In this document: positions 22,236 through 58,916 of the stretch, piece by piece
How the letters are laid out: each line of letters starts with the position of its first letter
Numbering within the stretch: position 1 is the stretch's first letter
Assembly: GCA_964035575.1 (NCBI GenBank)
Contig: OZ037835.1
Span: 1,054,001-1,118,000 of the forward strand
DNA: 64,000 nt
Direction of reading: 5' to 3'
Origin: Rhynchopus sp. YZ270_cl-10
Lineage: Eukaryota
Notes under the pieces: model-generated
The model's database searches: none
Told to the model about the DNA's origin: nothing
The model's input: the letters and a program-made list of their open reading frames with translations, nothing else
Position numbers and translations under genes: made by a program

Positions 22236-22622
22236 CCCTATTCCCCTATTCCCCTATTCCCCTATTCCCCTATTCCCCTATTCCCCTATTCCCCTATTCC
22301 CCTATTCCCCTATTCCCCTATTCCCCTATTCCCCTATTCCCCTATTCCCCTATTCCCCTATTCCCCTATTCCCCTATTCCCCTATTCCCCTATTCCCCTA
22401 TTCCCCTATTCCCCTATTCCCCTATTCCCCTATTCCCCTATTCCCCTATTCCCCTATTCCCCTATTCCCCTATTCCCCTATTCCCCTATTCCCCTATTCC
22501 CCTATTCCCCTATTCCCCTATTCCCCTATTCCCCTATTCCCCTATTCCCCTATTCCCCTATTCCCCTATTCCCCTATTCCCCTATTCCCCTATTCCCCTA
22601 TTCCCCTATTCCCCTATTCCCC
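22236..22622. repeat. (TATTCCCC)n microsatellite, ~48 copies
   Basis: Perfect 8-bp tandem repeat about 150 bp downstream of the stop codon of the unit 1 gene. Confidence 0.95.
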
Positions 22623-27855: not shown

Positions 27856-28437
27856 CCCTATTCCCCTATTCCCCTATTCCCCTATTCCCCTATTCCCCTA
27901 TTCCCCTATTCCCCTATTCCCCTATTCCCCTATTCCCCTATTCCCCTATTCCCCTATTCCCCTATTCCCCTATTCCCCTATTCCCCTATTCCCCTATTCC
28001 CCTATTCCCCTATTCCCCTATTCCCCTATTCCCCTATTCCCCTATTCCCCTATTCCCCTATTCCCCTATTCCCCTATTCCCCTATTCCCCTATTCCCCTA
28101 TTCCCCTATTCCCCTATTCCCCTATTCCCCTATTCCCCTATTCCCCTATTCCCCTATTCCCCTATTCCCCTATTCCCCTATTCCCCTATTCCCCTATTCC
28201 CCTATTCCCCTATTCCCCTATTCCCCTATTCCCCTATTCCCCTATTCCCCTATTCCCCTATTCCCCTATTCCCCTATTCCCCTATTCCCCTATTCCCCTA
28301 TTCCCCTATTCCCCTATTCCCCTATTCCCCTATTCCCCTATTCCCCTATTCCCCTATTCCCCTATTCCCCTATTCCCCTATTCCCCTATTCCCCTATTCC
28401 CCTATTCCCCTATTCCCCTATTCCCCTATTCCCCTAT
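27856..28437. repeat. (TATTCCCC)n microsatellite, ~72 copies
   Basis: Perfect 8-bp repeat in unit 3. Confidence 0.95.
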
Positions 28438-30274
28438 CCCCCCTTCTCGTGGCAAGACCGACAAACGAGAGCAAAAACGTAACAACACTTCACAGAAGCT
28501 TCGGACCATGGTACTGCGGGTTGCCTCTGACGCATCGATGCAGATGCGGCTGACTGTGCTCTTGCCGGTTGCAAACGCACCGGCCTTCTATCATTCTGAG
28601 CCTCTCCGTCGCTTGCGGCACTGCTCGGGAGATTCGTCTCTGCTACGTTTCGGACGTGCATCAACAAGCTCCTTCAGGTTGCTTTCCTGTACTCTACTCG
28701 ACACAGGGCTGCTGCAGCCGGAGAGGTGGATGCTCTTCAACGAAGTGTACAGGTGAGCAGGTAGTGGACCCATGTGCATGACGATGCCGAGTGGGGACAA
28801 GTCAAGCACTGTGAGGCTGCTGCAGCTGGCAAGAAAGCCACCACCGATTTTATAAACCATGCACAGCGGCGTCAAGTCTAGTTCTGTGAGGCTGGTGCAG
28901 TCGTTGAGAAAGGAGTCTCCTATTTGCGCAATATTCTCGAGTGGCGACAAGTCTAGTTCTGTGAGGCCGCTGCAGCCCTCAAGAAAGCTGCCGTCTATGT
29001 CTGTGACATTGCTAAGTGGTGTCAGGTCTAGCGTTGTGAGGCTGGTGCATCCCTCAAGAAACCAACGATCGATGTCTGTAACATTGCTGAGTGGTGCCAA
29101 GTTTAGTTCTCTAAGGCCCCAGCAGTTGGCAAGAAAGCATTCGCTTATGTGTCCAAGATTGCTGAGTGGCGACAAGTCTAATACTGTGAGGCCGCTGCAG
29201 CCATCAAGAAATGAACCATCGACTTTCGTAACATGTCTAAGTGGTGCCAAGTTCAGCACTATGAGGCCGATGCAGCCATCAAAAAACGATTCACCAACTT
29301 GTGTAATCCTGCTAAGTGGCGACAAATCTAATGCTGTGAGGCCTGTGCAGTTGGCAAGAAAGTATTCACGTAGTTGTGTAAGATTGGCGAGCGATGTCAA
29401 GTCTAGTTCTGTGAGGCCGCTGCAGCCGTAGAGAAAGAAACCACCAACTACCGTAACCTTGCTGAGTGGTGCCAAGTTCAGCACTGTGAGGCTCTTGCAC
29501 TCGTTAAGAAAGCAGTCGCCTATGTCTGTGACATTGCTGAGTGGTGTCAGGTCTAGCGTTGTGAGGCTGGTGCACTCCTCGAGAAAGCTTCCGGCTACTT
29601 GTGTAATCCTGCTGAGTGGCGACAGGTCTAATACTGTGAGGCCTCTGCAGGTGGTTAGAAAGTTCTCGCCAATCCGCGTCACATTGCACAACCCAGAGAG
29701 GTTGATACTTGTCAACGTTGAACACCCATCAAGAAAATAGTCACCTATTTCCGTCACACACAAAACAGCACTCAGATCAAGTGTTGTTAACGTTGTGTCT
29801 CCCAAGAAGCCATGCGGAATGACAGTCGCAACCTCCGCCTGCAGAAGCAAACACGCCACCTCAGGATCCTCCACACTCTCCAGCCTCTCTGCAAAAATAA
29901 ACGTTTTTAAAAATAGGATGGAGCACCCCGGTCCGAAAAGGAATGCAGCCACCCCTGGCTTCAGGCTCGCGAACCCAGTATTGCAGTAACACTGGGTCTC
30001 ACGGGCCAAAAACCGAACAAAGAAAAGGAAAATGTTTGGGTTCAGCGACAGCGCCAATGGGCTGACGCGACGCTGAACCAACTTAAAATAAAATAAAAAA
30101 ATCTTGTATCAACTTGAAAAAGAAAAGCAATGAACAGCAACAGAGCCATTTGGGCTTACGCGTCGCTAAAGTAACTGAAAAACAATGTTTTAAAAACAAG
30201 AATGTCGTTGACCAAGATTGAAATACACGAAAAAGGTAAAATACTAAGAATTGCCTCATATTCCATGGGCATCG

Positions 30275-31222
30275 TTTCTGATGTTGTAGTTTGTCTGCTG
30301 AGTGATCACGCGCCCCCCCCTACTAGGGAGGTCTTAGGTTCATGCTTCGGCTTGCACGTAAAGAACTACCATGTCGCCGAAGTTAGCGGTCCTCGTATTC
30401 CGTGAGGTCTTTCTGATGGTGTTGTTTGACTGCTGAGTGATCACGCGCCCCCCCTACTAGGGAGGTCTTGGATTCAGGCTTCGGCTTGCACGTAAAAGCT
30501 ACCATGTCGTCGAAGTTAGCGGTCCTCGTATTCCGTGAGGTCTTTCTGATGTTGTAGTTTGTCTGCTGAGTGATCACGCGCCCCCCCTACTAGGGAGGTC
30601 TTAGGTTCAGGCTTCGGCTTACACGTAAAAGCTACCATGTCGTCGAAGTTAGCGGTCCTCGTATTCCATGAGGTCTTTCAGATGTTGTTGTTTGACTGCT
30701 GAGTGATCACGCGCCCCCCCTACTAGGGAGGTCTTAGGTTCAGGCTTCGGCTTACACGTAAAAGCTACCATGTCGTCGAAGTTAGCGGTCCTCGTATTCC
30801 ATGAGGTCTTTCAGATGTTGTTGTTTGACTGCTGAGTGATCACGCGCCCCCCCTGCTAGGGAGGTCTTGGATTCAGGCTTCGGCTTGCACGTAAAAGCTA
30901 CCATGTCGTCGAAGTTAGCGGTCCTCGTATTCCGTGAGGTCTTTCTGATGTTGTAGTTTGTCTGCTGAGTGATCACGCGCCCCCCCTACTAGGGAGGTCT
31001 TAGGTTCAGGCTTCGGCTTGCACGTAAAAAGCTACCATGTCGTCGAAGTTAGCGGTCCTCGTATTCCGTGAGGTCTTTCTGATGTTGTAGTTTGTCTGCT
31101 GAGTGATCACGCGCCCCCCCTACTAGGGAGGTCTTAGGTTCAGGCTTCGGCTTGCACGTAAAAAGCTACCATGTCGTCGAAGTTAGCGGTCCTCGTATTC
31201 CATGAGGCACTTCAGATGTTGT
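30275..31222. repeat. 133-bp tandem repeat, ~7 copies, inside insert A
   Basis: Unit ...CTGCTGAGTGATCACGCGCCCCCCCTACTAGGGAGGTC...; repeated ORF images lie 399 bp (3x133) apart. Confidence 0.9.
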
Positions 31223-31309
31223 TCTTCTTTTTCTTCTTGTTCCGAGTCTTTGCCGCAGTCCTCTGCTTTGCCCGGGGTCACCTCGTGGAGGTGCTCGGTA
31301 AAACCCCGG

Positions 31310-31589
31310 TCTTCAGCCTTTTCGCAGTGATGTCTGTCTCACCCAACGCATGAAGAGCTGCTCTGGCCTCGAACTTCATCGACTTCGTCAACACAATCTT
31401 GTCCCCAGCACTCAGCTGCGTCATGTCCGCTCCTTCGCCCATCGCTTCGCATCCGAAATTCATCACAAAGCCGTCTTCAGGCAGCTCCACTGCAGACGCC
31501 ACCTTCCGCCGCATGTCCGTAGGTGTGTCATCCTCACCCAGCTCGACCACATGCTGCACTCCGTTCCACCCTTCGATAGTCAAATCCAT
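31310..31589 (-). pseudogene. 5' fragment (UBL domain + linker) of a different UBL-LRR paralogue carried by insert A
   Basis: MDLTIEGWNGVQHVVELGEDD...LSAGDKIVLTK...LGETDITAKRLK; family homology stops there. Confidence 0.85.
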
Positions 31590-31613
31590 TTTTTTGTGTT
31601 TCCGCGGTTTGCC

Positions 31614-31652
31614 CAATGAAGTACAGAAACTGTAGCTTTAGAAATCGTTGGT
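31614..31652 (-). other. Complete 39-nt spliced-leader (mini-exon) sequence in an mRNA-type context
   Basis: Minus strand reads ACCAACGATTTCTAAAGCTACAGTTTCTGTACTTCATTG, containing the conserved euglenozoan SL core CAGTTTCTGTACT.ATTG. It is followed by a 24-nt 5' UTR and an ATG, not by the GT of an SL RNA gene. Confidence 0.9.
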
Positions 31653-31734
31653 GGGGAGCCTCTCTGCAGTGATGTCGGTCTCACCCAACTTATGAAGCTC
31701 TGCAATGGCTTCGTACTTCTGCGTCTTCGTCAGG

Positions 31735-33370
31735 GTGGTAGTCCGTTTTAACGGTCTCTGGCAGGCCGGGCCTTCTTTCTGTGGCCTTCCCAACCAAAAG
31801 ACCCCCAAAAAACACAGGTACCTGCTGCGTTTAGTGGCATTTTACCCCAGTCCCTGGAACAGATCGGCAAGCCGACCAGCCCAGGTATGCATGCCAACAC
31901 TACTGGGGGTGCACTGTTCGATAGCATAAAAGAAAAAGTCAAAAAGTCAAAAAGACAAGAAGGTCAAACAAAATAGGTACTTCGAACAGGGCTGACAGGA
32001 GGGGATTCTCACCCGAGGTTCGGTGCCTGTCAGGCTGCGATTAGTGGTTCTGGGTGATTCCCTTCTTCCTAGCCACCGTTACCGCGGTGCCCACACCGTA
32101 AGAGAATGGGGACGGTTCACGACCGTTCGTTCGCGTCAGCAAAAGTAGGGGTCGGAGTCCAGGCCCGAACCGGAAACATTAACCTCCGTTTTTCGAAACA
32201 ATAAAAAGTAAAAATGAAAAAGAAAAATCAACAGCAAGAGCAGTGTTGTTGTAAAAGAAACAGCAGCACCGTCAGCTAACATGTCCACACAATATGGCAG
32301 ACGGCCACACAAAATTCCCCTGATTTGTACAGAGAAAGTTGTAACTTCTTCCTTACAAGTAAGGGAGTACCGGTAGGGAAGGAGTTACAACAAACAGTGA
32401 ACAAACTCAAGTACCAGCCTTTCCGCGTAGCACAGACCCTACATTTGGTAGTTGGTCTGCCCTACTGCCTCTTCTGCACCGTAGCTGAATGCCACGGCGA
32501 CAACTCCTTCATCTCCAACGTACCAAAGCACGTGAAAATAGAACAAAAATAAACACATTGGAAAACAACAGAGCATGTACCTGCAGAGTGCATACACCCT
32601 GAAAGTTTAACCTCTTCCTTCTAGCACAGACGTTGGTCTGCCCTACTGCCTCTTCTGCACCGTAGCTGAATGCCACGGCGACAACTTGTACCCACCTGCG
32701 AATGAATGCTCGCAGATCCCTTCTTCTACTAACGTATAAAAAACGTAAAAACAGACCAAAAACTACAACATGCCACACTGAATTAACGACAGAGCACGCA
32801 CCTGCAGATCCACAGATGTTTCACTACGGTGTACACAGCCTGAGGTTAAACACATAACACAAGAATTCTACTACGGCAAAAAGATGAAAACTGAACTGAA
32901 CTGAACAAAACTACAACACACCACACTGAATACACAAGAGCACGTACCTGCTGATCCACAGTTGTTTCACATACAGTGTACGCACCAACAAAGCAACACA
33001 ACGTTCCCATGCGGTCAAACGACAACACAGGAACAGCAACAATATTCCGTCACCAGTAGAGACACCGGCAACGCTTCCTTCTTGTACCTGGGATCCCCTC
33101 ATCGGCATCAACACACTCCCAGTCACCGCACAGGTAACAGATCCTTGAAACCCCTCCGAAGGGGTTTGCGTAGCCTACATAAGCTGGTGATCTGCCCGAA
33201 ATTGACTGTGATGTTGTATTAATAACCAGGGTTCCCACATCGGCTTGTTCCTCCTCCGGTCCCGAGCGAATCCATCATTGGAGAGGCGGCCGCCCACGCT
33301 GACTCAGTACCATGCGAACACGGCGTCCAGGGGCCCCACTTGGCGGTTGGTCAGACGTTAATTGCCCCCT
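31735..33370 (-). mobile_element. Insert B copy 1: non-coding SINE/SIDER-like retroelement with a 5' HDV-like ribozyme
   Basis: 18-bp TSD TTCTGCGTCTTCGTCAGG at 31717-31734 and 33371-33388. No long ORF; two internal ~190-200 bp repeats; several hairpins. Confidence 0.82.
33296..33369 (-). ncRNA. Putative HDV-like self-cleaving ribozyme at the 5' end of insert B
   Basis: Folded by eye: P1 GGGGGC/GCCCCU with G1.U wobble; P3 CCA/UGG; CC in L3 pairing with the GG after P1 (P1.1); P4 GCCGUG-UUCG-CAUGGU; J4/2 CUGA; P2 ACGUCUGA/UCAGCGU. Confidence 0.65.
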
Positions 33371-34047
33371 TTCTGCGTCTTCGTCAGGATGATTGTGTCA
33401 CCAGCACTCAGCTGCGTCATGTCCTCTCCTTCCTCCTTCCCTCCGAAGCCCATGTGGAAGCTGTCCTCAGCCAACCCTGCTGCAGACGCCACCTTCTGCC
33501 GCATCTCCTCCGTTGTGTCATCCACACCCACCTCGATCACGTACAAGTTGTCTGCACAGTCCTTGATGGTCAGTTCCATTTGCCTTCTTTTGTGTTGCTC
33601 TGTTGTGTGGTGGGGTTGTGGTTTTGGGGCAACGACGTAGAAACCCCTTGGCAGGCAGAGCCGTGCAACGACACCGCACGAAGCCGTCTCAGCCAATATT
33701 TAGCGTACACATGCATGCCGCATACGTCACGAAGTATGGCAGACAGGCACACAAGCAAGCAGAACGCTCCCACCGTCACCACTCACAGCACGCGAGTGTC
33801 CCCATCCCCACCAGAAGCAAGAGTGTCCCCAACCAGCCCTGAGCACGACGTCCTCTCCCGACCACACACATGATTTGGCCCACCCACAAAGCTGCTCATC
33901 GTTGCACGCATCACGCAGACGCACGATGGTAGGTGACTGCTTAGACGACCTGGGAGAAGAACACCCACCAGCTGCCACCTGCATGAGGGCACAGACGGCA
34001 CAGTGCCATGTCGCGAAAGTGAACCCACACACTGAATAAAAACACCA

Positions 34048-34265
34048 CACGACGGTGAAGTATAGTACATTACAAGTGAAGTTACTAGTAACGTTACAAG
34101 TGAAAAACCGTTACAAGTGAGTTACAAGTGGGATATATCAATTACAGGCAAAAGCAGGTGGTAACTGGTGGGTTACAAGTGGGTTACAAGTCAGTTACAT
34201 GTAACAAAAGTTACATGTAACTCACTTGTAACTCCACTTGTAACACCCGTTACTTCACCGTCGTG
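34048..34265. mobile_element. 218-bp MITE, CACTA/CMC-like
   Basis: 15-bp TIR CACGACGGTGAAGTA / TACTTCACCGTCGTG, 2-bp CA TSD (empty site at 43085-43105), subterminal TTACAAGTG repeats. Confidence 0.85.
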
Positions 34266-34303
34266 CACCCAAGATAGGCACCCCACCCCACCCACCCCAC
34301 CCA

Positions 34304-37300
34304 CACGACGGTGAAGTAACGGGTGTTACAAGTGGAGTTACAAGTGAGTTACATGTAACTTTTGTTACATGTAACATTACAAGTGCCACTTGTAATATAC
34401 ACGTATATTACATGTACCCATGTATATATTACACTGTACGCGCAGCAAATCCCTCATCCACACTCACGCAGAACCCATATTTCTCAAAAAAAAAAGACAC
34501 GTTTTTAACTATGTCCGTACTTCCAGCAAGCGGACTGCGCCAGACACACGGTTGTCACCACAGGCAAAGAAAGGAAAGTCGTCTGACCTCGAGGCAGATA
34601 ATCGAATCCAGAGCATGTTTGTGTCGTTCGCGGTCCTGGCCCTGTGGGAGGACAGACGCGCCCCTACCCTCAGTCTTCTCATTTTGTGGCTGGTGGGTAG
34701 GAGGGGGACCAGAAGAATGCACCGAGGTCCCAGGTCCTTGAACTGGACCAAGACACAGGCGGGCAAGCTCCGTCGGCGCAAGACGCCCTGCAAACGTCCG
34801 CCCTCTCCGGTCGCAGTCCCATGTCTTCGCAGGATAAGGGTTGCCGATGCTGTGGGAGGAGCGTGAATCCGGTCGTGTTGATAGCCCCAGGCTGTCAAAA
34901 CATAAAAAACACGGACCTAAAAGACGCGGAGGTTTTCAAGCGTCCAACGGTAGGCATAGCCCTATGTGAAGGTCACTACGAGACGATCCGGCCCACAGCG
35001 GAGGAGGGGGAAGATGTGTCGACGGCTTTGTTGAGGATCGCAGTCAGAGCGACGCTGAACCCCTTGGACCTGGATCTGCGCCCCATGTCGACCTCGAACC
35101 CCTCGGGGGAAGCTTTTGAGCTATGCTTGGGTAAGCCAGAGGAGGACTTCTGCTTCTGCCCGGTGGAGGGGTGCAAAAGGGGAATCATGGCACAGACGGA
35201 CGTGAAGTCTTTCACCCGCGATCAGCTTCTGGGGCACTTGAGACGCCACAAAGACAAGGAAGAGTAGGTGCCCGAACACATTCTGTCTTTCTTCGGCTAC
35301 AAAAGATGCGTCAGTGAGGACTGTTTTGCCCTGCTGAAGAAATCACAGAGCGCATGCAGGAGCTGTACACACCTCATGAAAAAGGTGCCCCTGCCAGGGA
35401 TCGAGGAACGCCTCACGCATGCCCTGAGGGAATGCCCACACTGGACATGATTGGCACAACCAGGTTCAAGCTGAAGGGGACTCACCAGACCTTCTCCATC
35501 GCTACACCCTTATCTTTCAGAGGGTTCTGCAGGAGATCCTGCAGCATCAGGATAAGAGGGCTTGGACCAAGTTTGCTGTGTTCTTCACCGTCCTGCACAG
35601 GGACCGTGGGGGTGGATGAGCTGGGTCACAAGATGCCAAACGGAGGTACTACAACTCCTGGAGACAGGACCTGAACTGGTGGGATGCGGGTGAGTGGTCG
35701 AATATGTGGGAGGAGCTCTGTCTGAAGTGCAAGCACGGCCGAAGTGGACGCCGGGTGACACGTTGGAGGCTCGCCAGAAACGTTCCCGCGTGAAAACGGC
35801 TGCAGGACTCCCTGGCCAAGCGCTGACCGCCCTCACCAGCGACGGCCTCGCCCCTCACGGACCGGAAACGTTGGCTAAACTGAAAGGTAAGCACCCAGCC
35901 TTTGATCCCCCTGTCGCCGCGTCCACTGGCCCCCTGAGGAACCCGTCCGGCCCGGCCGACTTCATCCCCAAGGAGGTCATAGCCGCGATCAGCAGCATGC
36001 CACGTGCCACTGCAGGAGGCCCCTCGAACCTCACCGGGTCCCTCCTTCGCACCCTTTGCAACCAGAAGCACACTCCTGGCACGCTCGCAGCCCTGTCGGC
36101 AGTGTTGTCTAGTCTGGCTCAAGGTAAAGCACACAAGGAGGTCGCGCCGTTCTTCGCAGGGGCCAAGCTGGTGGCCCTCAGGAAGGTGTCAAAAGGCAAA
36201 CCGGACGACGTGCGCCCGATTGCAGTTGGGGGTGTGATGCACCGTTTGGTTGGGAAGATCCTGGCGAACAGGCTGCGGAAGCGAGCGGCAGAAATTTTCC
36301 GCAAGGGGAACCAGGTGGGCGTGTCGACTACTTGGCGCCGAGGCAGCCACGACGATGGTTGCGCAGTACGCGAGGAGAAATGCTGGACAGGACAAGGTGA
36401 TTCTGAAGGTGGACTATCACAACGCTTTTAACACTGTTGATAGATCCACTTTCCTTGATGCGGCAGAGAAGCACATCCCTGAGATCTCACCCTGGGTGCG
36501 ATGGTGCTGCTCCGGCCGCACCTCCCTCTTCTATGGGGAAGACATCCTGCAGTCCCAGACAGGCGTGCAGCAAGGCGACCCCTTGGCCCTGTTCTGTTCT
36601 CTCTTGCGATTGCGGACATGACGGAACAGCTGAAGGCGAACAAAGCCCTTGATGGATCCATTTGGTACCTGGACGATGGATGCATCCGTGGCTCTCCTGA
36701 GGCTGTTAAGCATATGATGCGCTGGTGGTATCGAGCAAACGGGTTGGCCTGAAGGTGAACAATTCGAAGTGCGAGTTGGTGACACTCCGTGGCGACTCTG
36801 CAGCGGATTTGCGTGACAGGGGTTTTGACATCTGTGACGAGTCTGGTTCCCCTGGCTTCACCCTCCACCAGAAGAACTTCGATTTCCTGGGCGTCCCCAT
36901 CGGCACGGCGGAACACTGTAGGGAGTACATGCAGCGCAAGCATGACGAGTCGAAGCGGAACCTCGAGGCTCTTAAAGACCTCAAGGACTCACAGCATGCG
37001 TTCTACATCTTGCGCTTCTGCGAGGGGTTCTGCAAGATGGTATTCTACATGCGTGTAATATCATGTGTGGACCTAGGGGAGGACTACCTTCGGGACTTTG
37101 ACGCGGAGGTGGACAAGTGTTTGGCGGCGGTCCTGCACGATGAGCATGGGAAGATTTCGGAGCGGGCCCGCCTGCAGGCAGTGCTCCCCATCGCCATCGG
37201 AGGCTTAGGCGTCGCACTGCGGATCACTGGCCGGCAGCGGTCCTAGCGTCGCAGGCGGGGTGCCTCAAACTTGCCACGCAGTTGGACCCCTATTTTGAAT

Positions 37301-37563
37301 GGGACCAAACCAGGTGGAAGAATGCATTCGTCGTTTAAAAAAAAATTCTGTCGTACTGATCCGGGTACATGTAACTGGCTCCTCCCCGCAGACCGTACTG
37401 TGTTAAATACCACCCAGCCCCACCAAACACCACCAATTTCAGGCAGAATCAGGTGGTGGTACATGTAATATACATGTAACGTTACAAGTGGCACTTGTAA
37501 CGGTTTTTCACTTGTAACGTTACAAGTAACTTCACTTGTAATGCACTGTACTTCACCGTCGTG
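34304..37563. mobile_element. 3.26-kb TIR element of the same CACTA/CMC-like family carrying a retrotransposon fragment
   Basis: Same TIRs at 34304-34318 and 37549-37563, CA TSD, TTACAAGTG/CACTTGTAA subterminal arrays. Inverted relative to the adjacent MITE; no transposase ORF. Confidence 0.85.
34821..37245 (+). pseudogene. Decayed CRE/SLACS-like non-LTR retrotransposon ORF (C2H2 zinc finger + reverse transcriptase, 3'-truncated)
   Basis: CPVEGC...LLGHLRRH zinc finger and an in-frame stop at 35265-35267. RT motifs DVRPIAVG..HRLVGK, QVGV, LKVDYHNAFNTVDR, GVQQGDPLGPVLFSLAI, WYLDDG, GLKVNNSKCE and FLGVPIG span frameshifts near 36330, 36585 and 36720. Confidence 0.88.
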
Positions 37564-38207
37564 CACCCCAGCAAGAACGCCAAGGTACTCTCGTGCTGCA
37601 ACCACAGACAAGCTGAGGTGCCAGACAAATGCACGAAAGCACCCCACGGCTGGGCACGTCCCTGTTCTCCCTCATATTCTTTGCTGATCTGTTGGTTCAG
37701 TGTAGCTACCATTCAGGCAGTCTTCACTATGCAGAAAACACTCTCAAGAAAGGCCTCTGATCTGGGGCACAGTTGATGCGCTGCAACTACCAGGTTTTGG
37801 AGACCGTCACTCTGAAACAAATGTTAGACTTGGGTAGACAAACGTTTATTACATCAAACCTGGCCAGAAGTGGCCAGAAAACTCGAGTGTGCAGGTGCAC
37901 AATATATTTGCTCGATCTCCTTGGTGCAGTAGTTCACTCTTTGAATCATAATATAGACAAATCTCATGATGCAGTGTCAGCAAAACTGTGAGGGGGAAAT
38001 ACATGTGTGTCGTGTGGAAGCGAGGGGGAGGGATGTTCTGTTAAAAGGAGCCGTTTGTTGTTTTGCTTTGATGACTCTTTGGCTTTGCTGTTCTTCACAC
38101 TGTACTTACCCAAACACCCCACCTCCCCTCCCCAAACAAAACCCTTCTTCAGGAAAAGAAATCGAAACAAAGAATGCGTGAATCCCCCAATGTCGTACCC
38201 ACCCCGA

Positions 38208-39045
38208 CCCTATTCCCCTATTCCCCTATTCCCCTATTCCCCTATTCCCCTATTCCCCTATTCCCCTATTCCCCTATTCCCCTATTCCCCTATTCCCCTA
38301 TTCCCCTATTCCCCTATTCCCCTATTCCCCTATTCCCCTATTCCCCTATTCCCCTATTCCCCTATTCCCCTATTCCCCTATTCCCCTATTCCCCTATTCC
38401 CCTATTCCCCTATTCCCCTATTCCCCTATTCCCCTATTCCCCTATTCCCCTATTCCCCTATTCCCCTATTCCCCTATTCCCCTATTCCCCTATTCCCCTA
38501 TTCCCCTATTCCCCTATTCCCCTATTCCCCTATTCCCCTATTCCCCTATTCCCCTATTCCCCTATTCCCCTATTCCCCTATTCCCCTATTCCCCTATTCC
38601 CCTATTCCCCTATTCCCCTATTCCCCTATTCCCCTATTCCCCTATTCCCCTATTCCCCTATTCCCCTATTCCCCTATTCCCCTATTCCCCTATTCCCCTA
38701 TTCCCCTATTCCCCTATTCCCCTATTCCCCTATTCCCCTATTCCCCTATTCCCCTATTCCCCTATTCCCCTATTCCCCTATTCCCCTATTCCCCTATTCC
38801 CCTATTCCCCTATTCCCCTATTCCCCTATTCCCCTATTCCCCTATTCCCCTATTCCCCTATTCCCCTATTCCCCTATTCCCCTATTCCCCTATTCCCCTA
38901 TTCCCCTATTCCCCTATTCCCCTATTCCCCTATTCCCCTATTCCCCTATTCCCCTATTCCCCTATTCCCCTATTCCCCTATTCCCCTATTCCCCTATTCC
39001 CCTATTCCCCTATTCCCCTATTCCCCTATTCCCCTATTCCCCTAT
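38208..39045. repeat. (TATTCCCC)n microsatellite, ~105 copies
   Basis: Perfect 8-bp repeat in unit 4. Confidence 0.95.
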
Positions 39046-40564
39046 CCCCCCTTCTCGTGGCAAGACCGACAAACGAGAGCAAAAACGTAACAACACTTCA
39101 CAGAAGCTTCGGACCATGGTACTGCGGGTTGCCTCTGACGCATCGATGCAGATGCGGCTGACTGTGCTCTTGCCGGTTGCAAACGCACCGGCCTTCTATC
39201 ATTCTGAGCCTCTCCGTCGCTTGCGGCACTGCTCGGGAGATTCGTCTCTGCTACGTTTCGGACGTGCATCAACAAGCTCCTTCAGGTTGCTTTCCTGTAC
39301 TCTACTCGACACAGGGCTGCTGCAGCCGGAGAGGTGGATGCTCTTCAACGAAGTGTACAGGTGAGCAGGTAGTGGACCCATGTGCATGACGATGCCGAGT
39401 GGGGACAAGTCAAGCACTGTGAGGCTGCTGCAGCTGGCAAGAAAGCCACCACCGATTTTATAAACCATGCACAGCGGCGTCAAGTCTAGTTCTGTGAGGC
39501 TGGTGCAGTCGTTGAGAAAGGAGTCTCCTATTTGCGCAATATTCTCGAGTGGCGACAAGTCTAGTTCTGTGAGGCCGCTGCAGCCCTCAAGAAAGCTGCC
39601 GTCTATGTCTGTGACATTGCTAAGTGGTGTCAGGTCTAGCGTTGTGAGGCTGGTGCATCCCTCAAGAAACCAACGATCGATGTCTGTAACATTGCTGAGT
39701 GGTGCCAAGTTTAGTTCTCTAAGGCCCCAGCAGTTGGCAAGAAAGCATTCGCTTATGTGTCCAAGATTGCTGAGTGGCGACAAGTCTAATACTGTGAGGC
39801 CGCTGCAGCCATCAAGAAATGAACCATCGACTTTCGTAACATGTCTAAGTGGTGCCAAGTCCAGCACTGTGAGGCTCTCGCAGCCGTCACAAAAGGATTC
39901 ACCAACTTGTGTAATCCTGCTGAGTGGCGACAAATCTAATGCTGTGAGGCCTGTGCAGTTGGCAAGAAAGTATTGACGTAGTCGTGTAAGATTGGCGAGC
40001 GATGTCAAGTCTAGTTCTGTGAGGCCGCTGCAGCCATTAAGAAAGCAACTACCAACTATCGTAACCATGCTGAGTGGTGCCAAGTTCAGCACTGTGAGGC
40101 CGCTGCAGCCGTTAAGAAAACAGTCGCCTATGTCTGTGACATTGCTGAGTGGTGTCAGGTCTAGCGTTGTGAGGCTGGTGCACTCCTCGAGAAAGCTTCC
40201 GGCTACTTGTGTAATCCTGCTGAGTGGCGACAGGTCTAATACTGTGAGGCCTGTGCCGGTAAGAAAGCTCTCGCCAATCCGCGTCACATTGCACAACCCA
40301 GAGAGGTTGATACTTGTCAACGTTGAACACCCATCAAGAAAATAGTCACCTATTTCCGTCACACACAAAACAGCACTCAGATCAAGTGTTGTTAACGTTG
40401 TGTCTCCCAAGAAGCCATGCGGAATGACAGTCGCAACCTCCGCCTGCAGAAGCAAACACGCCACCTCAGGATCCTCCACACTCTCCAGCCTCTCTGCAGT
40501 GATGTCGGTCTCACCCAACTTATGAAGCTCTGCAATGGCTTGGTACTTCTGCGTCTTCGTCAGG

Positions 40565-42419
40565 TAGGGGTCCGTTTTAGGTCTCTGGCAGGCCGGGCCT
40601 TCTTTCTGTGGCCTTCCCAACCAAAAGACCCCCAAAAAACACAGGTACCTGCTGCGTTTAATGGCACTTTACCCCAGTCCCTGGAACAGATCGGCAAGCC
40701 GACCAGCCCAGGTATGCATGCCAACACTACTGGGGGTGCACTGTTCGATAGCATAAAAGAAAAGTCAAAAAGTCAAAAAGACAAGAAGGTCAAACAAAAT
40801 AGGTACTTCGAACAGGGCTGACAGGAGGGGATTCTCACCCGAGGTTCGGTGCCTGTCAGGCTGCGATTAGTGGTTCTGGGTGATTCCCTTCTTCCTAGCC
40901 ACCGTTACCGCGTTGCCCGCACCGTAAGAGAATGGGGACGGTTCACGACCGTTCGTACGCGTCAGTAAAAGTAGGGGTCGGAGTCCAGGCCCGAACCGGA
41001 AACATTAACCTCCGTTTTTCGAAACATTAAAAAGTAAAAATGAAAAAGAAAAATCAACAGCAAGAGCAGTGTTGTTGTAAAAGAAACAGCAGCACCGTCA
41101 GCTAACATGTCCACACAATATGGCAGACGGCCACACAAAATTCCCCTGATTTGTACAGAGAAAGTTGTAACTTCTTCCTTACAAGTAAGGGAGTGCCGGC
41201 AGGGAAGGAGTTACAACAAACAGTGAACAAACTCAAGTACCAGCCTTTCCGCGTAGCACAGACCCTACATTTGGTAGTTGGTCTGCCCTACTGCCTCATC
41301 TGCACCGTAGCTGGACGCCACGGCGACAACTCCTTCATCTATCAACGTACCAAAGCACGTGAAAATAGAACAAAAATAAACACAATGGAAAAACAGCAGA
41401 GCATGGACCTGCAGATCCACAGTTGTTTCACGTACAGTGCATACACCCTGAAAGCTTAACCTCTTCCTTCTAGCACAGACGTTGGTCTGCCCTACTGCCT
41501 CTTCTGCACCGTAGCTGAGCCACGGCGACAACTCCTTCATCTATCAACGTACCAAAGCACGTGAAAATAGAACAAAAATAAACACATTGGAAAAACAGCA
41601 GAGCATGTACCTGCAGATCCACAGTTGTTTCACGTACAATGCATACACCCTGAAAGTTTAACCTCTTCCTTCTAGCACAGACGTTGGTCTGCCCTACTAC
41701 TTCTTCTGCACCGTAGCTGAATGCCACGGCGACAACTTGTACCCACCTGCGAATGAATGTTCGCAGATCCCTTCTTCTACTAACGTATAAAAACGTAAAA
41801 ACAGACCAAAAACTACAACATGCCACACTGAATTAACGACAGAGCACGCACCTGCAGATCCACAGATGTTTCACTACGGTGTACACAGCCTGAGGTTAAA
41901 CACATAACACAAGAATTCTACTACGGCAAAAAGATGAAAACTGAACTGAACTGAACAAAACTACAACACACCACACTGAATACACAAGAGCACGTACCTG
42001 CTGATCCACAGTTGTTTCACATACAGTGTACGCACCAACAAAGCAACAAAACGTTCCCATGCGGTCAAACGACAACACAGGAACAGCAACAATATTCCGT
42101 CACCAGTAGAGACACCGGCAACGCTTCCTTCTTGTACCTGGGATCCCCTCATCGGCATCAACACACTCCCAGTCACCGCACAGGTAACAGATCCTTGAAA
42201 CCCCTCCGAAGGGGTTTGCGTAGCCTACATAAGCTGGTGATCTGCCCGAAATTGACTGTGATGTTGTGTTAATAACCAGGGTTCCCACATCGGCTTGTTC
42301 CTCCTCCGGTCCCGAGCGAATCCATCATTGGAGAGGCGGCCGCCCACGCTGACTCAGTACCATGCGAACACGGCGTCCAGGGGCCCCACTTGGCGGTTGG
42401 TCAGACGTTAATTGCCCCC
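40565..42419 (-). mobile_element. Insert B copy 2
   Basis: TSD TTCTGCGTCTTCGTCAGG at 40547-40564 and 42420-42437. Near-identical to copy 1 but with three internal ~200-bp repeats instead of two. Confidence 0.82.
42346..42419 (-). ncRNA. Putative HDV-like ribozyme (copy 2)
   Basis: Sequence identical to 33296-33369; the first G directly abuts the TSD. Confidence 0.65.
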
Positions 42420-45767: not shown

Positions 45768-48700
45768 CCCCACCCCATCATCCTTCAGCATGCAGACAAC
45801 ACTGCCTACTCCCCATCCCATCATCCTTCAGCATGCAGACAACACTGCCTACTCCCCATCCCATCATCCTTCAGCATGCAGACAACACTGCCTACTCCCC
45901 ATCCCATCATCCTTCAGCATGCAGACAACACTGTCTACTCCCCATCCCATCATCCTTCAGCATACAGACAACACTGCCTACTCCCCATCCCATCATCCTT
46001 CAGCATACAGACAACACTGCCTACTCCCCATCCCATCATCCTTCAGCATGCAGACAACACTGCCTACTCCCCATCCCATCATCCTTCAGCATACAGACAA
46101 CACTGCCTACTCCCCATCCCATCATCCTTCAGCATGCAGACAACACTGTCTACTCCCCATCCCATCATCCTTCAGCATGCAGACAACACTGTCTACTCCC
46201 CATCCCATCATCCTTCAGCATACAGACAACACTGCCTACTCCCCATCCCATCATCCTTCAGCATACAGACAACACTGCCTACTCCCCATCCCATCATCCT
46301 TCAGCATACAGACAACGCTGCCTACTCCCCATCCCATCATCCTTCAGCATGCAGACAACACTGCCTACTCCCCATCCCATCATCCTTCAGCATACAGACA
46401 ACACTGCCTACTCCCATCATCCTTCAGCATACAGACAACACTGTCTACTCCCCATCCCATCATCCTTCAGCATGCAGACAACACTGCCTACTCCCCATCC
46501 CATCATCCTTCAGCATGCAGACAACACTGCCTACTCCCCATCCCATCATCCTTCAGCATGCAGACAACACTGCCTACTCCCCATCCCATCATCCTTCAGC
46601 ATACAGACAACACTGCCTACTCCCCATCCCATCATCCTTCAGCATGCAGACAACACTGTCTACTCCCCATCCCATCATCCTTCAGCATACAGACAACACT
46701 GCCTACTCCCCATCCCATCATCCTTCAGCATACAGACAACGCTGCCTACTCCCCATCCCATCATCCTTCAGCATGCAGACAACACTGCCTACTCCCCATC
46801 CCATCATCCTTCAGCATACAGACAACACTGTCTACTCCCCATCCCATCATCCTTCAGCATACAGACAACACTGCCTACTCCCCATCCCATCATCCTTCAG
46901 CATACAGACAACACTGCCTACTCCCCATCCCATCATCCTTCAGCATGCAGACAACACTGCCTACTCCCCATCCCATCATCCTTCAGCATACAGACAACGC
47001 TGCCTACTCCCCATCCCATCATCCTTCAGCATGCAGACAACACTGTCTACTCCCCATCCCATCATCCTTCAGCATACAGACAACACTGCCTACTCCCCAT
47101 CCCATCATCCTTCAGCATACAGACAACACTGTCTACTCCCCATCCCATCATCCTTCAGCATGCAGACAACACTGTCTACTCCCCATCCCATCATCCTTCA
47201 GCATGCAGACAACACTGCCTACTCCCCATCCCATCATCCTTCAGCATACAGACAACACTGCCTACTCCCCATCCCATCATCCTTCAGCATACAGACAACA
47301 CTGCCTACTCCCCATCCCATCATCCTTCAGCATGCAGACAACACTGTCTACTCCCCATCCCATCATCCTTCAGCATACAGACAACACTGCCTACTCCCCA
47401 TCCCATCATCCTTCAGCATACAGACAACGCTGCCTACTCCCCATCCCATCATCCTTCAGCATACAGACAACACTGCCTACTCCCCATCCCATCATCCTTC
47501 AGCATACAGACAACACTGCCTACTCCCCATCCCATCATCCTTCAGCATGCAGACAACACTGTCTACTCCCCATCCCATCATCCTTCAGCATACAGACAAC
47601 ACTGCCTACTCCCCACCCCATCATCCTTCAGCATACAGACAACACTGTCTACTCCCCACCCCATCATCCTTCAGCATGCAGACAACACTGTCTACTCCCC
47701 ATCCCATCATCCTTCAGCATACAGACAACACTGCCTACTCCCCATCCCATCATCCTTCAGCATACAGACAACACTGTCTACTCCCCATCCCATCATCCTT
47801 CAGCATACAGACAACACTGCCTACTCCCCACCCCATCATCCTTCAGCATGCAGACAACACTGTCTACTCCCCATCCCATCATCCTTCAGCATGCAGACAA
47901 CACTGCCTACTCCCCATCCCATCATCCTTCAGCATACAGACAACACTGCCTACTCCCCATCCCATCATCCTTCAGCATACAGACAACACTGCCTACTCCC
48001 CATCCCATCATCCTTCAGCATGCAGACAACACTGTCTACTCCCCATCCCATCATCCTTCAGCATACAGACAACACTGCCTACTCCCCATCCCATCATCCT
48101 TCAGCATACAGACAACACTGCCTACTCCCCATCCCATCATCCTTCAGCATACAGACAACACTGCCTACTCCCCATCCCATCATCCTTCAGCATGCAGACA
48201 ACACTGTCTACTCCCCATCCCATCATCCTTCAGCATACAGACAACACTGCCTACTCCCCATCCCATCATCCTTCAGCATACAGACAACGCTGCCTACTCC
48301 CCATCCCATCATCCTTCAGCATGCAGACAACACTGCCTACTCCCCATCCCATCATCCTTCAGCATACAGACAACACTGTCTACTCCCCATCCCATCATCC
48401 TTCAGCATACAGACAACGCTGCCTACTCCCCATCCCATCATCCTTCAGCATGCAGACAACACTGCCTACTCCCCATCCCATCATCCTTCAGCATACAGAC
48501 AACACTGCCTACTCCCATCATCCTTCAGCATGCAGACAACACTGTCTACTCCCCATCCCATCATCCTTCAGCATGCAGACAACACTGACTACTCCCCATC
48601 CCATCATCCTTCAGCATAGAGACAACACTGCCTACTCCCCATCCCATCATCCTTCAGCATGCAGACAACACTGCCTACTCCCCATCCCATCATCCTTCAG

Positions 48701-51700
48701 CATACAGACAACACTGTCTACTCCCCATCCCATCATCCTTCAGCATGCAGACAACACTGTCTACTCCCCATCCCATCATCCTTCAGCATACAGACAACAC
48801 TGCCTACTCCCCACCCCATCATCCTTCAGCATACAGACAACACTGCCTACTCCCCATCCCATCATCCTTCAGCATGCAGACAACACTGCCTACTCCCCAT
48901 CCCATCATCCTTCAGCATACAGACAACACTGTCTACTCCCCATCCCATCATCCTTCAGCATGCAGACAACACTGCCTACTCCCCATCCCATCATCCTTCA
49001 GCATGCAGACAACACTGCCTACTCCCCATCCCATCATCCTTCAGCATACAGACAACACTGTCTACTCCCCATCCCATCATCCTTCAGCATACAGACAACA
49101 CTGCCTACTCCCCACCCCATCATCCTTCAGCATGCAGACAACACTGTCTACTCCCCATCCCATCATCCTTCAGCATGCAGACAACACTGCCTACTCCCCA
49201 TCCCATCATCCTTCAGCATACAGACAACACTGTCTACTCCCCATCCCATCATCCTTCAGCATGCAGACAACACTGCCTACTCCCCATCCCATCATCCTTC
49301 AGCATACAGACAACACTGCCTACTCCCATCATCCTTCAGCATGCAGACAACACTGTCTACTCCCCATCCCATCATCCTTCAGCATACAGACAACACTGTC
49401 TACTCCCCATCCCATCATCCTTCAGCATGCAGACAACACTGCCTACTCCCCATCCCATCATCCTTCAGCATGCAGACAACACTGCCTACTCCCCATCCCA
49501 TCATCCTTCAGCATACAGACAACACTGTCTACTCCCCATCCCATCATCCTTCAGCATACAGACAACGCTGCCTACTCCCCATCCCATCATCCTTCAGCAT
49601 GCAGACAACACTGCCTACTCCCCATCCCATCATCCTTCAGCATACAGACAACACTGCCTACTCCCATCATCCTTCAGCATGCAGACAACACTGTCTACTC
49701 CCCATCCCATCATCCTTCAGCATACAGACAACACTGTCTACTCCCCATCCCATCATCCTTCAGCATGCAGACAACACTGCCTACTCCCCATCCCATCATC
49801 CTTCAGCATAGAGACAACACTGCCTACTCCCCATCCCATCATCCTTCAGCATGCAGACAACACTGCCTACTCCCCATCCCATCATCCTTCAGCATACAGA
49901 CAACACTGTCTACTCCCCATCCCATCATCCTTCAGCATGCAGACAACACTGTCTACTCCCCATCCCATCATCCTTCAGCATACAGACAACACTGCCTACT
50001 CCCCACCCCATCATCCTTCAGCATACAGACAACACTGCCTACTCCCCATCCCATCATCCTTCAGCATGCAGACAACACTGCCTACTCCCCATCCCATCAT
50101 CCTTCAGCATACAGACAACACTGTCTACTCCCCATCCCATCATCCTTCAGCATGCAGACAACACTGCCTACTCCCCATCCCATCATCCTTCAGCATACAG
50201 ACAACACTGTCTACTCCCCATCCCATCATCCTTCAGCATACAGACAACACTGCCTACTCCCCACCCCATCATCCTTCAGCATGCAGACAACACTGTCTAC
50301 TCCCCATCCCATCATCCTTCAGCATGCAGACAACACTGCCTACTCCCCATCCCATCATCCTTCAGCATACAGACAACACTGTCTACTCCCCATCCCATCA
50401 TCCTTCAGCATGCAGACAACACTGCCTACTCCCCATCCCATCATCCTTCAGCATACAGACAACACTGCCTACTCCCATCATCCTTCAGCATGCAGACAAC
50501 ACTGTCTACTCCCCATCCCATCATCCTTCAGCATACAGACAACACTGTCTACTCCCCATCCCATCATCCTTCAGCATGCAGACAACACTGCCTACTCCCC
50601 ATCCCATCATCCTTCAGCATAGAGACAACACTGCCTACTCCCCATCCCATCATCCTTCAGCATGCAGACAACACTGCCTACTCCCCATCCCATCATCCTT
50701 CAGCATACAGACAACACTGTCTACTCCCCATCCCATCATCCTTCAGCATACAGACAACACTGCCTACTCCCCACCCCATCATCCTTCAGCATACAGACAA
50801 CACTGCCTACTCCCCATCCCATCATCCTTCAGCATGCAGACAACACTGCCTACTCCCCATCCCATCATCCTTCAGCATACAGACAACACTGTCTACTCCC
50901 CATCCCATCATCCTTCAGCATGCAGACAACACTGCCTACTCCCCATCCCATCATCCTTCAGCATGCAGACAACACTGCCTACTCCCCATCCCATCATCCT
51001 TCAGCATACAGACAACACTGTCTACTCCCCATCCCATCATCCTTCAGCATGCAGACAACACTGTCTACTCCCCATCCCATCATCCTTCAGCATACAGACA
51101 ACACTGCCTACTCCCCACCCCATCATCCTTCAGCATACAGACAACACTGCCTACTCCCCATCCCATCATCCTTCAGCATGCAGACAACACTGCCTACTCC
51201 CCATCCCATCATCCTTCAGCATACAGACAACACTGTCTACTCCCCATCCCATCATCCTTCAGCATGCAGACAACACTGCCTACTCCCCATCCCATCATCC
51301 TTCAGCATGCAGACAACACTGCCTACTCCCCATCCCATCATCCTTCAGCATACAGACAACACTGTCTACTCCCCATCCCATCATCCTTCAGCATACAGAC
51401 AACACTGCCTACTCCCCACCCCATCATCCTTCAGCATGCAGACAACACTGTCTACTCCCCATCCCATCATCCTTCAGCATGCAGACAACACTGCCTACTC
51501 CCCATCCCATCATCCTTCAGCATACAGACAACACTGTCTACTCCCCATCCCATCATCCTTCAGCATGCAGACAACACTGCCTACTCCCCATCCCATCATC
51601 CTTCAGCATACAGACAACACTGCCTACTCCCATCATCCTTCAGCATGCAGACAACACTGTCTACTCCCCATCCCATCATCCTTCAGCATACAGACAACAC

Positions 51701-53564
51701 TGTCTACTCCCCATCCCATCATCCTTCAGCATGCAGACAACACTGCCTACTCCCCATCCCATCATCCTTCAGCATAGAGACAACACTGCCTACTCCCCAT
51801 CCCATCATCCTTCAGCATGCAGACAACACTGCCTACTCCCCATCCCATCATCCTTCAGCATACAGACAACACTGTCTACTCCCCATCCCATCATCCTTCA
51901 GCATGCAGACAACACTGTCTACTCCCCATCCCATCATCCTTCAGCATACAGACAACACTGCCTACTCCCCACCCCATCATCCTTCAGCATACAGACAACA
52001 CTGCCTACTCCCCATCCCATCATCCTTCAGCATGCAGACAACACTGCCTACTCCCCATCCCATCATCCTTCAGCATACAGACAACACTGTCTACTCCCCA
52101 TCCCATCATCCTTCAGCATGCAGACAACACTGCCTACTCCCCATCCCATCATCCTTCAGCATGCAGACAACACTGCCTACTCCCCATCCCATCATCCTTC
52201 AGCATACAGACAACACTGTCTACTCCCCATCCCATCATCCTTCAGCATACAGACAACACTGCCTACTCCCCACCCCATCATCCTTCAGCATGCAGACAAC
52301 ACTGTCTACTCCCCATCCCATCATCCTTCAGCATGCAGACAACACTGCCTACTCCCCATCCCATCATCCTTCAGCATGCAGACAACACTGTCTACTCCCC
52401 ATCCCATCATCCTTCAGCATGCAGACAACACTGCCTACTCCCCATCCCATCATCCTTCAGCATACAGACAACACTGCCTACTCCCATCATCCTTCAGCAT
52501 GCAGACAACACTGTCTACTCCCCATCCCATCATCCTTCAGCATACAGACAACACTGTCTACTCCCCATCCCATCATCCTTCAGCATGCAGACAACACTGC
52601 CTACTCCCCATCCCATCATCCTTCAGCATAGAGACAACACTGCCTACTCCCCATCCCATCATCCTTCAGCATGCAGACAACACTGCCTACTCCCCATCCC
52701 ATCATCCTTCAGCATACAGACAACACTGTCTACTCCCCATCCCATCATCCTTCAGCATGCAGACAACACTGTCTACTCCCCATCCCATCATCCTTCAGCA
52801 TACAGACAACACTGCCTACTCCCCACCCCATCATCCTTCAGCATACAGACAACACTGCCTACTCCCCATCCCATCATCCTTCAGCATGCAGACAACACTG
52901 CCTACTCCCCATCCCATCATCCTTCAGCATACAGACAACACTGTCTACTCCCCATCCCATCATCCTTCAGCATGCAGACAACACTGCCTACTCCCCATCC
53001 CATCATCCTTCAGCATGCAGACAACACTGCCTACTCCCCATCCCATCATCCTTCAGCATACAGACAACACTGTCTACTCCCCATCCCATCATCCTTCAGC
53101 ATACAGACAACACTGCCTACTCCCCACCCCATCATCCTTCAGCATGCAGACAACACTGTCTACTCCCCATCCCATCATCCTTCAGCATGCAGACAACACT
53201 GCCTACTCCCCATCCCATCATCCTTCAGCATACAGACAACACTGTCTACTCCCCATCCCATCATCCTTCAGCATGCAGACAACACTGCCTACTCCCCATC
53301 CCATCATCCTTCAGCATACAGACAACACTGCCTACTCCCCATCCCATCATCCTTCAGCATGCAGACAACACTGTCTACTCCCCACCCCATCATCCTTCAG
53401 CATGCAGACAACACTGTCTACTCCCCATCCCATCATCCTTCAGCATACAGACAACACTGCCTACTCCCCATCCCATCATCCTTCAGCATACAGACAACAC
53501 TGCCTACTCCCCATCCCATCATCCTTCAGCATGCAGACAACACTGCCTACTCCCCACCCCATCA
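45768..53564. repeat. 43-bp satellite, ~180 units, with higher-order structure
   Basis: Unit CCCCATCCCATCATCCTTCAGCAT(A/G)CAGACAACACTG(C/T)CTACT; recurring 37-bp deletion variants and rare CATAGAGAC variants. Confidence 0.95.
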
Positions 53565-58400: not shown

Positions 58401-58916
58401 CGCGTCCACATGCGTGGCGAGGTTGCTTTGCGCAAGATGCATCAGATACCACTTCGCCGCGGAGCGGATCATCCGATCGTTGTGATCGTTCGCAGACTCG
58501 CCCTCCTCAGGCGTCTGGCAGGCGGTGTCCACGTGGTTCTCATTGCTGAAGACGTAGAAGCGCTTCGGGTTGCCCTCCTCCTTGATCACCTTTGCAAGAC
58601 GGCCGTACACAGCACGGTTCAGGTTCTTCACCTCCGCCAGCACCGTGTCCAGAATCACAACGTTCTTCACGGCAGGGCTCTCAATAGCATCGATGTTGTG
58701 CAAGATGACGTTTGTGTCCGGAAGCAGTATCGGTGTGTCGACGGTCAGGGGCGCAGGGAACGCAGCGGTGTAATATTTCGCGCACTGTGGGCAAGTGTTC
58801 ACACCACATGGGATATCTGTACGGAGGTACACTTTCTGTACATGCTTTGCAACTTTGAAATTGCCGCCCCCCTTTCTGCTGCTGAAGAACGACTTTGAAC
58901 CGCGGATCATGGACAT
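55427..58916 (-). CDS. RRP44: Exosome catalytic subunit RRP44/DIS3 (exons 58916-58257 and 57895-55427; ~1042 aa)
   Basis: CR3 motif YLRTDIPCG..CPQC; PIN motifs LPDTNV, ESANDHNDR and LLTHD; RNB motifs SVDPPGCKDIDDALH and YTHFTSPIRR.AD..VHR.L. A phase-0 GT...CAG intron joins the two ORFs in frame. Confidence 0.95.
57896..58256 (-). other. 361-bp canonical GT-AG intron of RRP44
   Basis: GAG|GTATTG donor and CCCCCACAG|ACA acceptor. Contains a piece of a dispersed repeat also seen at ~61745-61810. Confidence 0.85.

Follow-up and report, generated by a model that had tools for sequence, protein, structure and literature searches.

The locus lies within a window of 64,000 nucleotides, the whole stretch of DNA analyzed here, which contains six genes and one retrocopied fragment of a family whose members encode a ubiquitin-like (UBL) domain followed by BspA-type leucine-rich repeats (LRR). 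The UBL-LRR family is large, as judged from the best 120 of 2,547 matches in a protein search. One of its members, on the minus strand, is interrupted by two inserts, designated B and C, and a second copy of insert B is found elsewhere in the window. The parts of the host gene and the ends of the two B copies were as follows.

33371..33579, minus strand: 5' part of the host gene, ubiquitin-like domain, 70 aa, which runs into B and stops
28591..29893, minus strand: 3' part of the host gene, BspA-type LRR
31735..33369, minus strand: insert B copy 1, 1,635 bp
40565..42419, minus strand: insert B copy 2, 1,855 bp, with an extra internal repeat unit of ~200 bp
33388-33371, minus strand: 5' target duplication of B copy 1, 18 bp, with an extra A at 33370
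31717..31734, minus strand: 3' target duplication of B copy 1, 18 bp
42437-42420 and 40564-40547, minus strand: target duplications of B copy 2, 18 bp
33296..33369, minus strand: predicted HDV-like head of B copy 1, with G1 at 33369, the candidate catalytic C at 33307, and the equivalent of G25 at 33339 in the preferred register (see below)
42419-42346, minus strand: head of B copy 2, the identical 74 nt

The same 18-bp repeat, CCTGACGAAGACGCAGAA, bounds both copies of B. Single copies of it, differing by no more than one substitution, are present at three paralogous sites that are empty (23989, 11833, and 4662), and one with two substitutions is present near 26500. In copy 2, G1 directly follows the repeat and is identical to the next host base as well, a 1-nt microhomology. 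A sequence-only reading of the window had placed G1 at the target duplication junction in both copies; this is accurate for copy 2, but in copy 1 the extra A separates the repeat from G1. B lies in the sense orientation of its host gene. The two copies differ by 23 substitutions over 1,666 aligned columns, none of them in the first 150 nt, and their final 5-8 nt are unlike. Neither copy contains an ATG-initiated open reading frame of more than 74 aa or a tRNA, no poly(A) or simple-repeat tail was present at either 3' end, and no tRNA-derived SINE head and no terminal inverted or long direct repeats were seen in B. An autonomous partner was not found within the 64-kb window. The 18-bp duplications, the lack of coding capacity, and the insertions at one codon of divergent paralogs described below bear out the earlier proposal that B is a non-autonomous retroposon, which we consider very probable.

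Ten of the 22 listed sequencing runs contain part of the stretch, and none of these ten is listed as RNA. Six runs were compared, all as contigs, a form of data in which RNA ends and strand are not visible. Cover was absent over the head of element A (described below) in runs X6, X7, and X10, and over the B head above 33313 in run X9. Two contigs of run X2 extend the 3' end of B, from a loose end before 31753, into another flank, and several indels lie near the end in one X2 contig; these could reflect a B copy that has diverged or insertion at another target. Within B, a 25-nt pyrimidine tract (32203-32227, minus strand) is followed 18 nt downstream by an AG, a possible trans-splice acceptor.

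An in-frame stop is encountered 2-5 codons past the B junction, leaving the host protein cut to its UBL domain. Sixteen family proteins, 14 of them from outside the window, end at this same codon in B-encoded tails (GAINV-stop or GGN-stop). The truncated protein of copy 2 (75 aa) retrieved 28 clusters when used as the query; in 11 of these the chain terminates with GAINV at this position, and another is the copy 1 product, which terminates with GGN; the members of the 20 clusters that were examined add P0149 (copy 2), P0153, P0157, and P0150. Among the 167 family proteins collected, 14 end in GAINV, 2 in GGN, and none in the tail of the third B frame. The GGN tail of P0150 arises from an upstream frameshift in the host sequence, and therefore 15 of the 16 junctions are scored as being of the copy-2 type. 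At least seven contigs, probably of one genome, carry the 14 outside proteins. The B copies of these proteins are known from 3-5 translated codons only, and the protein-tail approach detects only those inserts having an intact 5' end.

The UBL domains of the B hosts are 52-99% identical to one another, and for 11 of 15 hosts an intact paralog is nearer than any other B carrier. When mapped onto a UBL tree of 148 rows (130 intact, 15 B, and 3 A, with 10 'other' rows and 9 unparsed rows, including P0150, omitted), the B label changes 14 times, a count that does not separate gain from loss. A single B clade was rejected (p-AU 1.65e-5), with at least five changes forced by strong branches, using a 29-row subset made up of the 15 B rows, their 11 nearest intact paralogs, and 3 more, a design that favors scatter. 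The residues immediately preceding the B junction differ by host (TQK, TKK, ESKK, TMK, or AKK), and in run X6 a contig of 808 nt places B next to host sequence unlike the flank of either window copy. The hosts of the two window copies are nearly identical (1 difference in 209), and these two copies may represent one event. B is a site-specific element with multiple independent insertions at one codon; outside the window this is observed at the protein level only.

Sixty bp downstream of the B site, the same host gene is interrupted a second time, by insert C. Its features are given below.

29894..31656, minus strand: insert C, 1,763 bp
31668-31657 and 29893-29882, minus strand: 12-bp duplication of insert C, TGCAGAGAGGCT
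31614..31653, minus strand: 40-mer resembling a spliced leader, at the 5' end of the insert
31308..31589, minus strand: 5' portion of a diverged UBL-LRR paralog, retrocopied, with ~70% identity to the host gene at this locus
29894..31307, minus strand: element A, in which a ribozyme is followed by a 133-bp unit repeated 7.1 times (30275-31222) and a tail
31241..31307, minus strand: HDV-like ribozyme heading element A, with L3 UCCACGA (U20, C24, G25) and J4/2 CAAA

Insert C thus reads CCCC, the leader-like 40-mer, 24 nt, the UBL coding start of the paralog, and element A. The 24 nt translate to GKPRKHKK, a near match to the sequence preceding the start codon of P0062. The 40-mer resembles the spliced leader named 'Euglenozoa 14', which we take to be the diplonemid one. 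Compared by eye, the two agree at 36 of 39 bases, with one inserted base (PMC3795323). Contigs from four runs pile up on the 40-mer, one of them only 41 nt in length. Insert C was likely retrocopied from a paralog transcript that had been trans-spliced and that contained element A, and the simplest reading is that a host mRNA containing A was reverse-transcribed from the 3' end of A into A's own target site. A retrocopy that begins with a spliced-leader-like sequence points to the existence of host-element co-transcripts and to RNA-mediated insertion at this locus, in a euglenozoan. The co-transcript looks to have been left uncut by the ribozyme, or else its pieces were rejoined by a template jump; even the canonical ribozyme of A does not always set the 5' end.

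The ribozyme of element A is ~2 kb from the B head and has the complete L3 signature of HDV ribozymes. Against the Rfam model RF02682 it scored 28.2 bits (local E 0.003; the gathering score is 44), and as a ribozyme candidate it is superior to the B head. A P1 of 7 bp beginning at C31308 was considered for A and rejected, as the residues preceding the A tail are not the same in three other paralogs. That tail, GVLPSTSTR-stop or GFLPSTSTR-stop, ends P0134, P0143, and P0163 at one codon, which corresponds to the second site, 60 bp downstream of the B site. The array of 133-bp units (30275-31222) was covered in all four runs examined, with loose ends extending into more units. By eye, TAAAACG was noted 8-9 nt before the 3' junction in both A and B (40565-40580, 31735-31752, and 29894-29910, minus strand) and ATCAY just upstream of the duplication start in both targets, a comparison of two families only.

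Six other tails at the B site (P0122, P0127, P0130, P0131, P0152, and P0160) gave no convincing tblastn match to B, and the two shortest of these may be 5'-truncated B. Additional foreign tails at the B and A sites were seen in P0126, P0128, and P0164 and in P0135 and P0145; the tail sequences of the whole set include PDGGPPP..., GRTGLVSFFREN..., and others. Foreign tails at both sites suggest that further insert families enter the UBL-LRR family.

We then considered the 5' end of B, which the sequence-only reading had folded as an HDV-like ribozyme. The 74-nt minus-strand sequence on which that fold was drawn is exact at 33369-33296 and is unchanged at 42419-42346. Most of the proposed elements are present: a P1 of 6 bp (G1.U41 followed by five G-C or C-G pairs), a P2 (CUGAC/GUCAG, 5 bp, plus 3 pairs after a bulge) that is pseudoknotted with P1, a P4 of 6 bp capped by UUCG, the GG for P1.1, and a J4/2 of CUGA, in which the candidate catalytic C is followed by N-R-A before P2. 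The CUGA falls outside the stricter CRRA given in PMC6326823; the consensus of RF02682 at this position is CUAA. The part of the earlier fold that is in doubt is P3/L3, for which two registers can be drawn, P1.1 pairing being possible in either. Register 1, that of the earlier reading, has P3 as CCA/UGG, three Watson-Crick pairs stacked on P2, and a 9-nt L3, ACCGCCAAG, placing A, C, and C at positions 20, 24, and 25. Register 2, the one that aligns with element A, has P3 as an A.G and two C-G pairs and a 7-nt L3, GCCAAGU, with one or two extra bases as a short linker between P2 and P3; here G25 is kept, U20 is replaced by G and C24 by A, and a G20.G25 combination results. In register 2 the first residue of L3 is G rather than the A that had been listed as a caveat, and with a 6-bp P1 the mismatch reported at a seventh P1 pair disappears. 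The calculated energies are -15.5 kcal/mol for register 1 versus -14.8 kcal/mol for register 2.

A search with an HDV descriptor, one of the checks proposed with the earlier fold, recovered both B heads and element A among 9 start positions at 7 sites of the window, against a background of 55 matches in 1,024,000 shuffled positions (5e-5 per base). When the B head was shuffled 20,000 times, 9 of the shuffled sequences had a match within the first 5 nt. The relaxed descriptor, which allows the P2 bulge, was composed after seeing B, making these chance figures optimistic. The covariance-model search that had also been proposed gave no match to any Rfam ribozyme model in 33200-33450 at E≤10. The nested minimum-energy fold of the B head is a different structure, in competition with P1 and P4 and less stable than those of shuffled sequences (z +1.4), and the P1 pair probability is 0.16-0.19 for the isolated head, as calculated with ViennaRNA, which cannot score pseudoknots. 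The absence of changes in the head between the window copies is expected with P=0.41 under the element-wide rate; head substitutions were also not listed in the assembled contigs of four sequencing runs. A gapped pattern of the B core had no matches in viral contigs, and its sole match in metagenome contigs (L001) was set aside as chance, as it lies within an unrelated 474-aa open reading frame and the contig has no similarity to the window.

Over the 21 nt from P3 to P1.1, the A core matches B at 15 positions without gaps, a value reached by 45 of 20,000 shuffles, and the two B heads are the top matches to the A core among ~128,000 positions of the window. MAFFT placed the cores in the same register. 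Similarity over the whole head is weak (396 of 20,000 shuffles). Read from the sequences, P1 and P2 of A and B differ and their pairing is kept: position 5 of P1 is U-A versus G-C, and two of the five P2 pairs are changed on both sides. The likeness of the cores may reflect common descent or convergence, and in either case it supports an HDV-type fold for B.

The residues U20, C24, and G25 form the L3 signature of HDV ribozymes (PMC6326823, PMC3386971), and B lacks U20 and G25 in register 1 and U20 and C24 in register 2. In the antigenomic HDV ribozyme, all mutants with U23A, which corresponds to U20A, were inactive, as was A23/C28; G23/G28 was one of four active mutants and was 470-fold slower (PMC3386971). 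Changes at G25 of another HDV ribozyme cost about 1000-fold (PMC13635239). R2 ribozymes have a P1 of 6-7 bp, and one active element has a P3 mismatch; the sow bug R2 ribozyme, with C-to-A and G-to-A changes in L3, is inactive, and active-site convergence is documented among such ribozymes (PMC3774820). We prefer register 2 since it aligns with the canonical element A and since the A20 of register 1 is inactive in the HDV mutants; register 1 is probably not the right one. As with the sow bug R2 ribozyme, the joint defects of B, namely the loss of U20 and C24, the P3 mismatch, and the extra bases between P2 and P3, could abolish cleavage. An HDV-like fold of the head is likely, and the chances that it still cleaves appear evenly balanced. 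With the L3 signature incomplete and a covariance-model match lacking, B is not yet to be classed as an HDV-like ribozyme.

The explanation that we favor is a site-specific retroposon whose 5' HDV-like fold is predicted to self-cleave slowly at G1, freeing the element RNA from the host transcript, and we give this roughly even chances. B is observed in the sense orientation at a single fixed site, its 5' junction varying hardly at all, and would be co-transcribed with the host gene, for which insert C offers a precedent. The head of the transcript is predicted to fold with a 6-bp P1, P2, a P3 of A.G and two C-G pairs, the L3 GCCAAGU with G20.G25, P1.1, P4, and CUGA, and a cut at a low rate is predicted 5' of G1. 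A putative autonomous non-LTR element would supply a sequence-specific endonuclease and a reverse transcriptase; paralogs would be cut with an 18-19-nt stagger and B copied in by target-primed reverse transcription, each insertion leaving the host protein as a UBL domain alone. The earlier suggestion that the ribozyme would also cleave host mRNA just after the UBL domain adds little even if the ribozyme is active, as the host frame already meets a stop 2-5 codons past the junction. In a more specific version, which we regard as possible but doubtful, A and B would be related as sister families of retroposons headed by ribozymes, each confined to a fixed codon of its own and exploiting the large protein-coding family much as R2 exploits rDNA; B would be a natural, working G20.G25 variant of HDV that cuts only part of the host co-transcripts. 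To date, a G20.G25 core has been seen only in a slow mutant made in the laboratory.

The uniform junctions of B do not in themselves prove cleavage. In R2 elements, a cut exactly at the junction goes together with variable junctions, and uniform junctions accompany uncut upstream host sequence in the template (PMC3774820). The same site-specific retroposon might then carry only a dead relic of an HDV ribozyme. Its 5' end would be fixed either by a promoter within the element or by uncut cDNA from the host annealing to the target site. Such a relic agrees with the incomplete core in either register and with insert C, in which an uncut or rejoined co-transcript was copied even with the canonical ribozyme of A, and in L1Tc the Pr77 sequence is both promoter and ribozyme (PMC3185411). 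It is difficult to reconcile with P1, P2, P4, P1.1, and CUGA remaining intact in sequences unlike those of A, which is hard to explain without selection on the fold; moreover, the host residues on the junction side follow each paralog rather than one donor, and long conversion tracts are not evident. We regard a dead relic as less probable than slow cleavage, yet as a serious alternative.

Much less likely is a fast ribozyme, either in register 1, with its CCA/UGG P3 and a 9-nt L3 beginning with A, or with a new active-site geometry. Register 1 is slightly more stable, with three Watson-Crick pairs directly on P2, and the head is invariant in every copy seen, but its A20/C25 pair corresponds to the inactive HDV U23A and A23/C28 mutants (PMC3386971), changes at G25 cause a ~1000-fold loss in another HDV ribozyme (PMC13635239), and the alignment with element A favors register 2. 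It is equally improbable, in our estimation, that a G/C-rich 5' end folds this way by chance and that B moves or is removed otherwise, by DNA-level homing, by conversion between paralogs, or as a non-canonical intron. The post hoc descriptor, the lack of an Rfam match, the weak global similarity of A and B, and the lack of poly(A) on B would all be compatible with coincidence, and removal of B together with one duplication would restore the host frame. Against it, the fold begins at most 1 nt from the junction, with a per-base background of 5e-5, a second, independent element at the neighboring site likewise opens with an HDV fold, no terminal inverted or long direct repeats were seen, and the duplication, as read from the sequence, offers no GT...AG register. 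Slow self-cleavage at G1 remains the reading that we prefer.

Several known systems resemble B in part. The NARTc, RIME, and SIDER elements of trypanosomatids, which carry Pr77, are likewise non-coding, reside in a trans-splicing euglenozoan host, and have an HDV-like fold in the first ~75 nt with cleavage expected at +1 (PMC4035085, PMC3185411). B differs from these in its length of 1.6-1.9 kb, the absence of poly(A), the 18-bp duplication, the single fixed codon, and a core without U20/C24. The distribution of L1Tc is described as largely random (PMC3185411), unlike that of B, and L1Tc/ingi elements have a variable poly(A) tail (PMC12278014), which B lacks. R2 SIDEs and R2 ribozymes share with B site specificity, co-transcription with a multicopy host (presumed for B), and a 5' HDV-like ribozyme with a 6-7-bp P1, to which host bases can contribute (PMC3774820). 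In contrast to R2, the target of B is a protein-coding family rather than 28S rDNA, no R2-like partner was found in the 64-kb window, and the core of B is more deviant than the R2 consensus. The CRE clade (CRE1/2, SLACS, and CZAR) comprises euglenozoan, site-specific non-LTR elements that duplicate their targets and possess an endonuclease of the restriction-like type (PMC12278014). The CRE targets are spliced-leader RNA genes, and a poly(A) end is usual in these elements, whereas B enters UBL-LRR coding sequence; a degenerate reverse transcriptase of apparent CRE architecture is found 2 kb from B. The RHS genes of Trypanosoma are, like the hosts of B, a protein-coding multigene family repeatedly entered by retroelements, with insertion at a fixed place. 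The host family here differs from RHS in its UBL-BspA-LRR products, its two hot spots 60 bp apart, and its several unrelated inserts. B is not to be assigned to the ingi or CRE elements yet.

Ribozyme-headed non-autonomous retroposons are already known as a kind, and the sequence-specific non-LTR elements described to date insert for the most part into repeats, among them rRNA genes and microsatellites (PMC4640811). Three points are new here. The target is one codon of a protein-coding family, repeatedly entered, which would shape the turnover of that family. B would also serve as a natural test of HDV active-site drift, with the canonical control A in the same genome, and insert C preserves the co-transcript presumed by the ribozyme model. 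A literature search covering few subscription papers found no paper on HDV-like ribozymes in diplonemids, and the word 'ribozyme' does not occur in the D. papillatum genome paper.

The reverse transcriptase near B and its surroundings were examined as well.

~35000-37250, plus strand: degenerate, frameshifted non-LTR reverse transcriptase, with inverted-repeat-like ends at ~34050-34380 and ~37480-37565

This sequence is presumably CRE-like, as judged from its motifs. A relative, P0171, 60% identical to it, has an RVT_1 domain and, by eye, CCHC finger and restriction-like endonuclease motifs. B and the reverse transcriptase have no common sequence, a word search, which is weak evidence, gave no longer homolog at E≤1e-10, and the only match in the PDB was L1 ORF2 (E~0.4). 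Elsewhere in the window, a 43-bp satellite is repeated 182 times at 45768-53564, and arrays of CCCTATTC (22236-22622, 27856-28442, and 38208-39050) lie downstream of each local UBL-LRR gene. Rrp44/Dis3 is encoded at 55427-59030 on the minus strand as two open reading frames (PIN and CSD-RNB-S1) that are probably separated by an intron.
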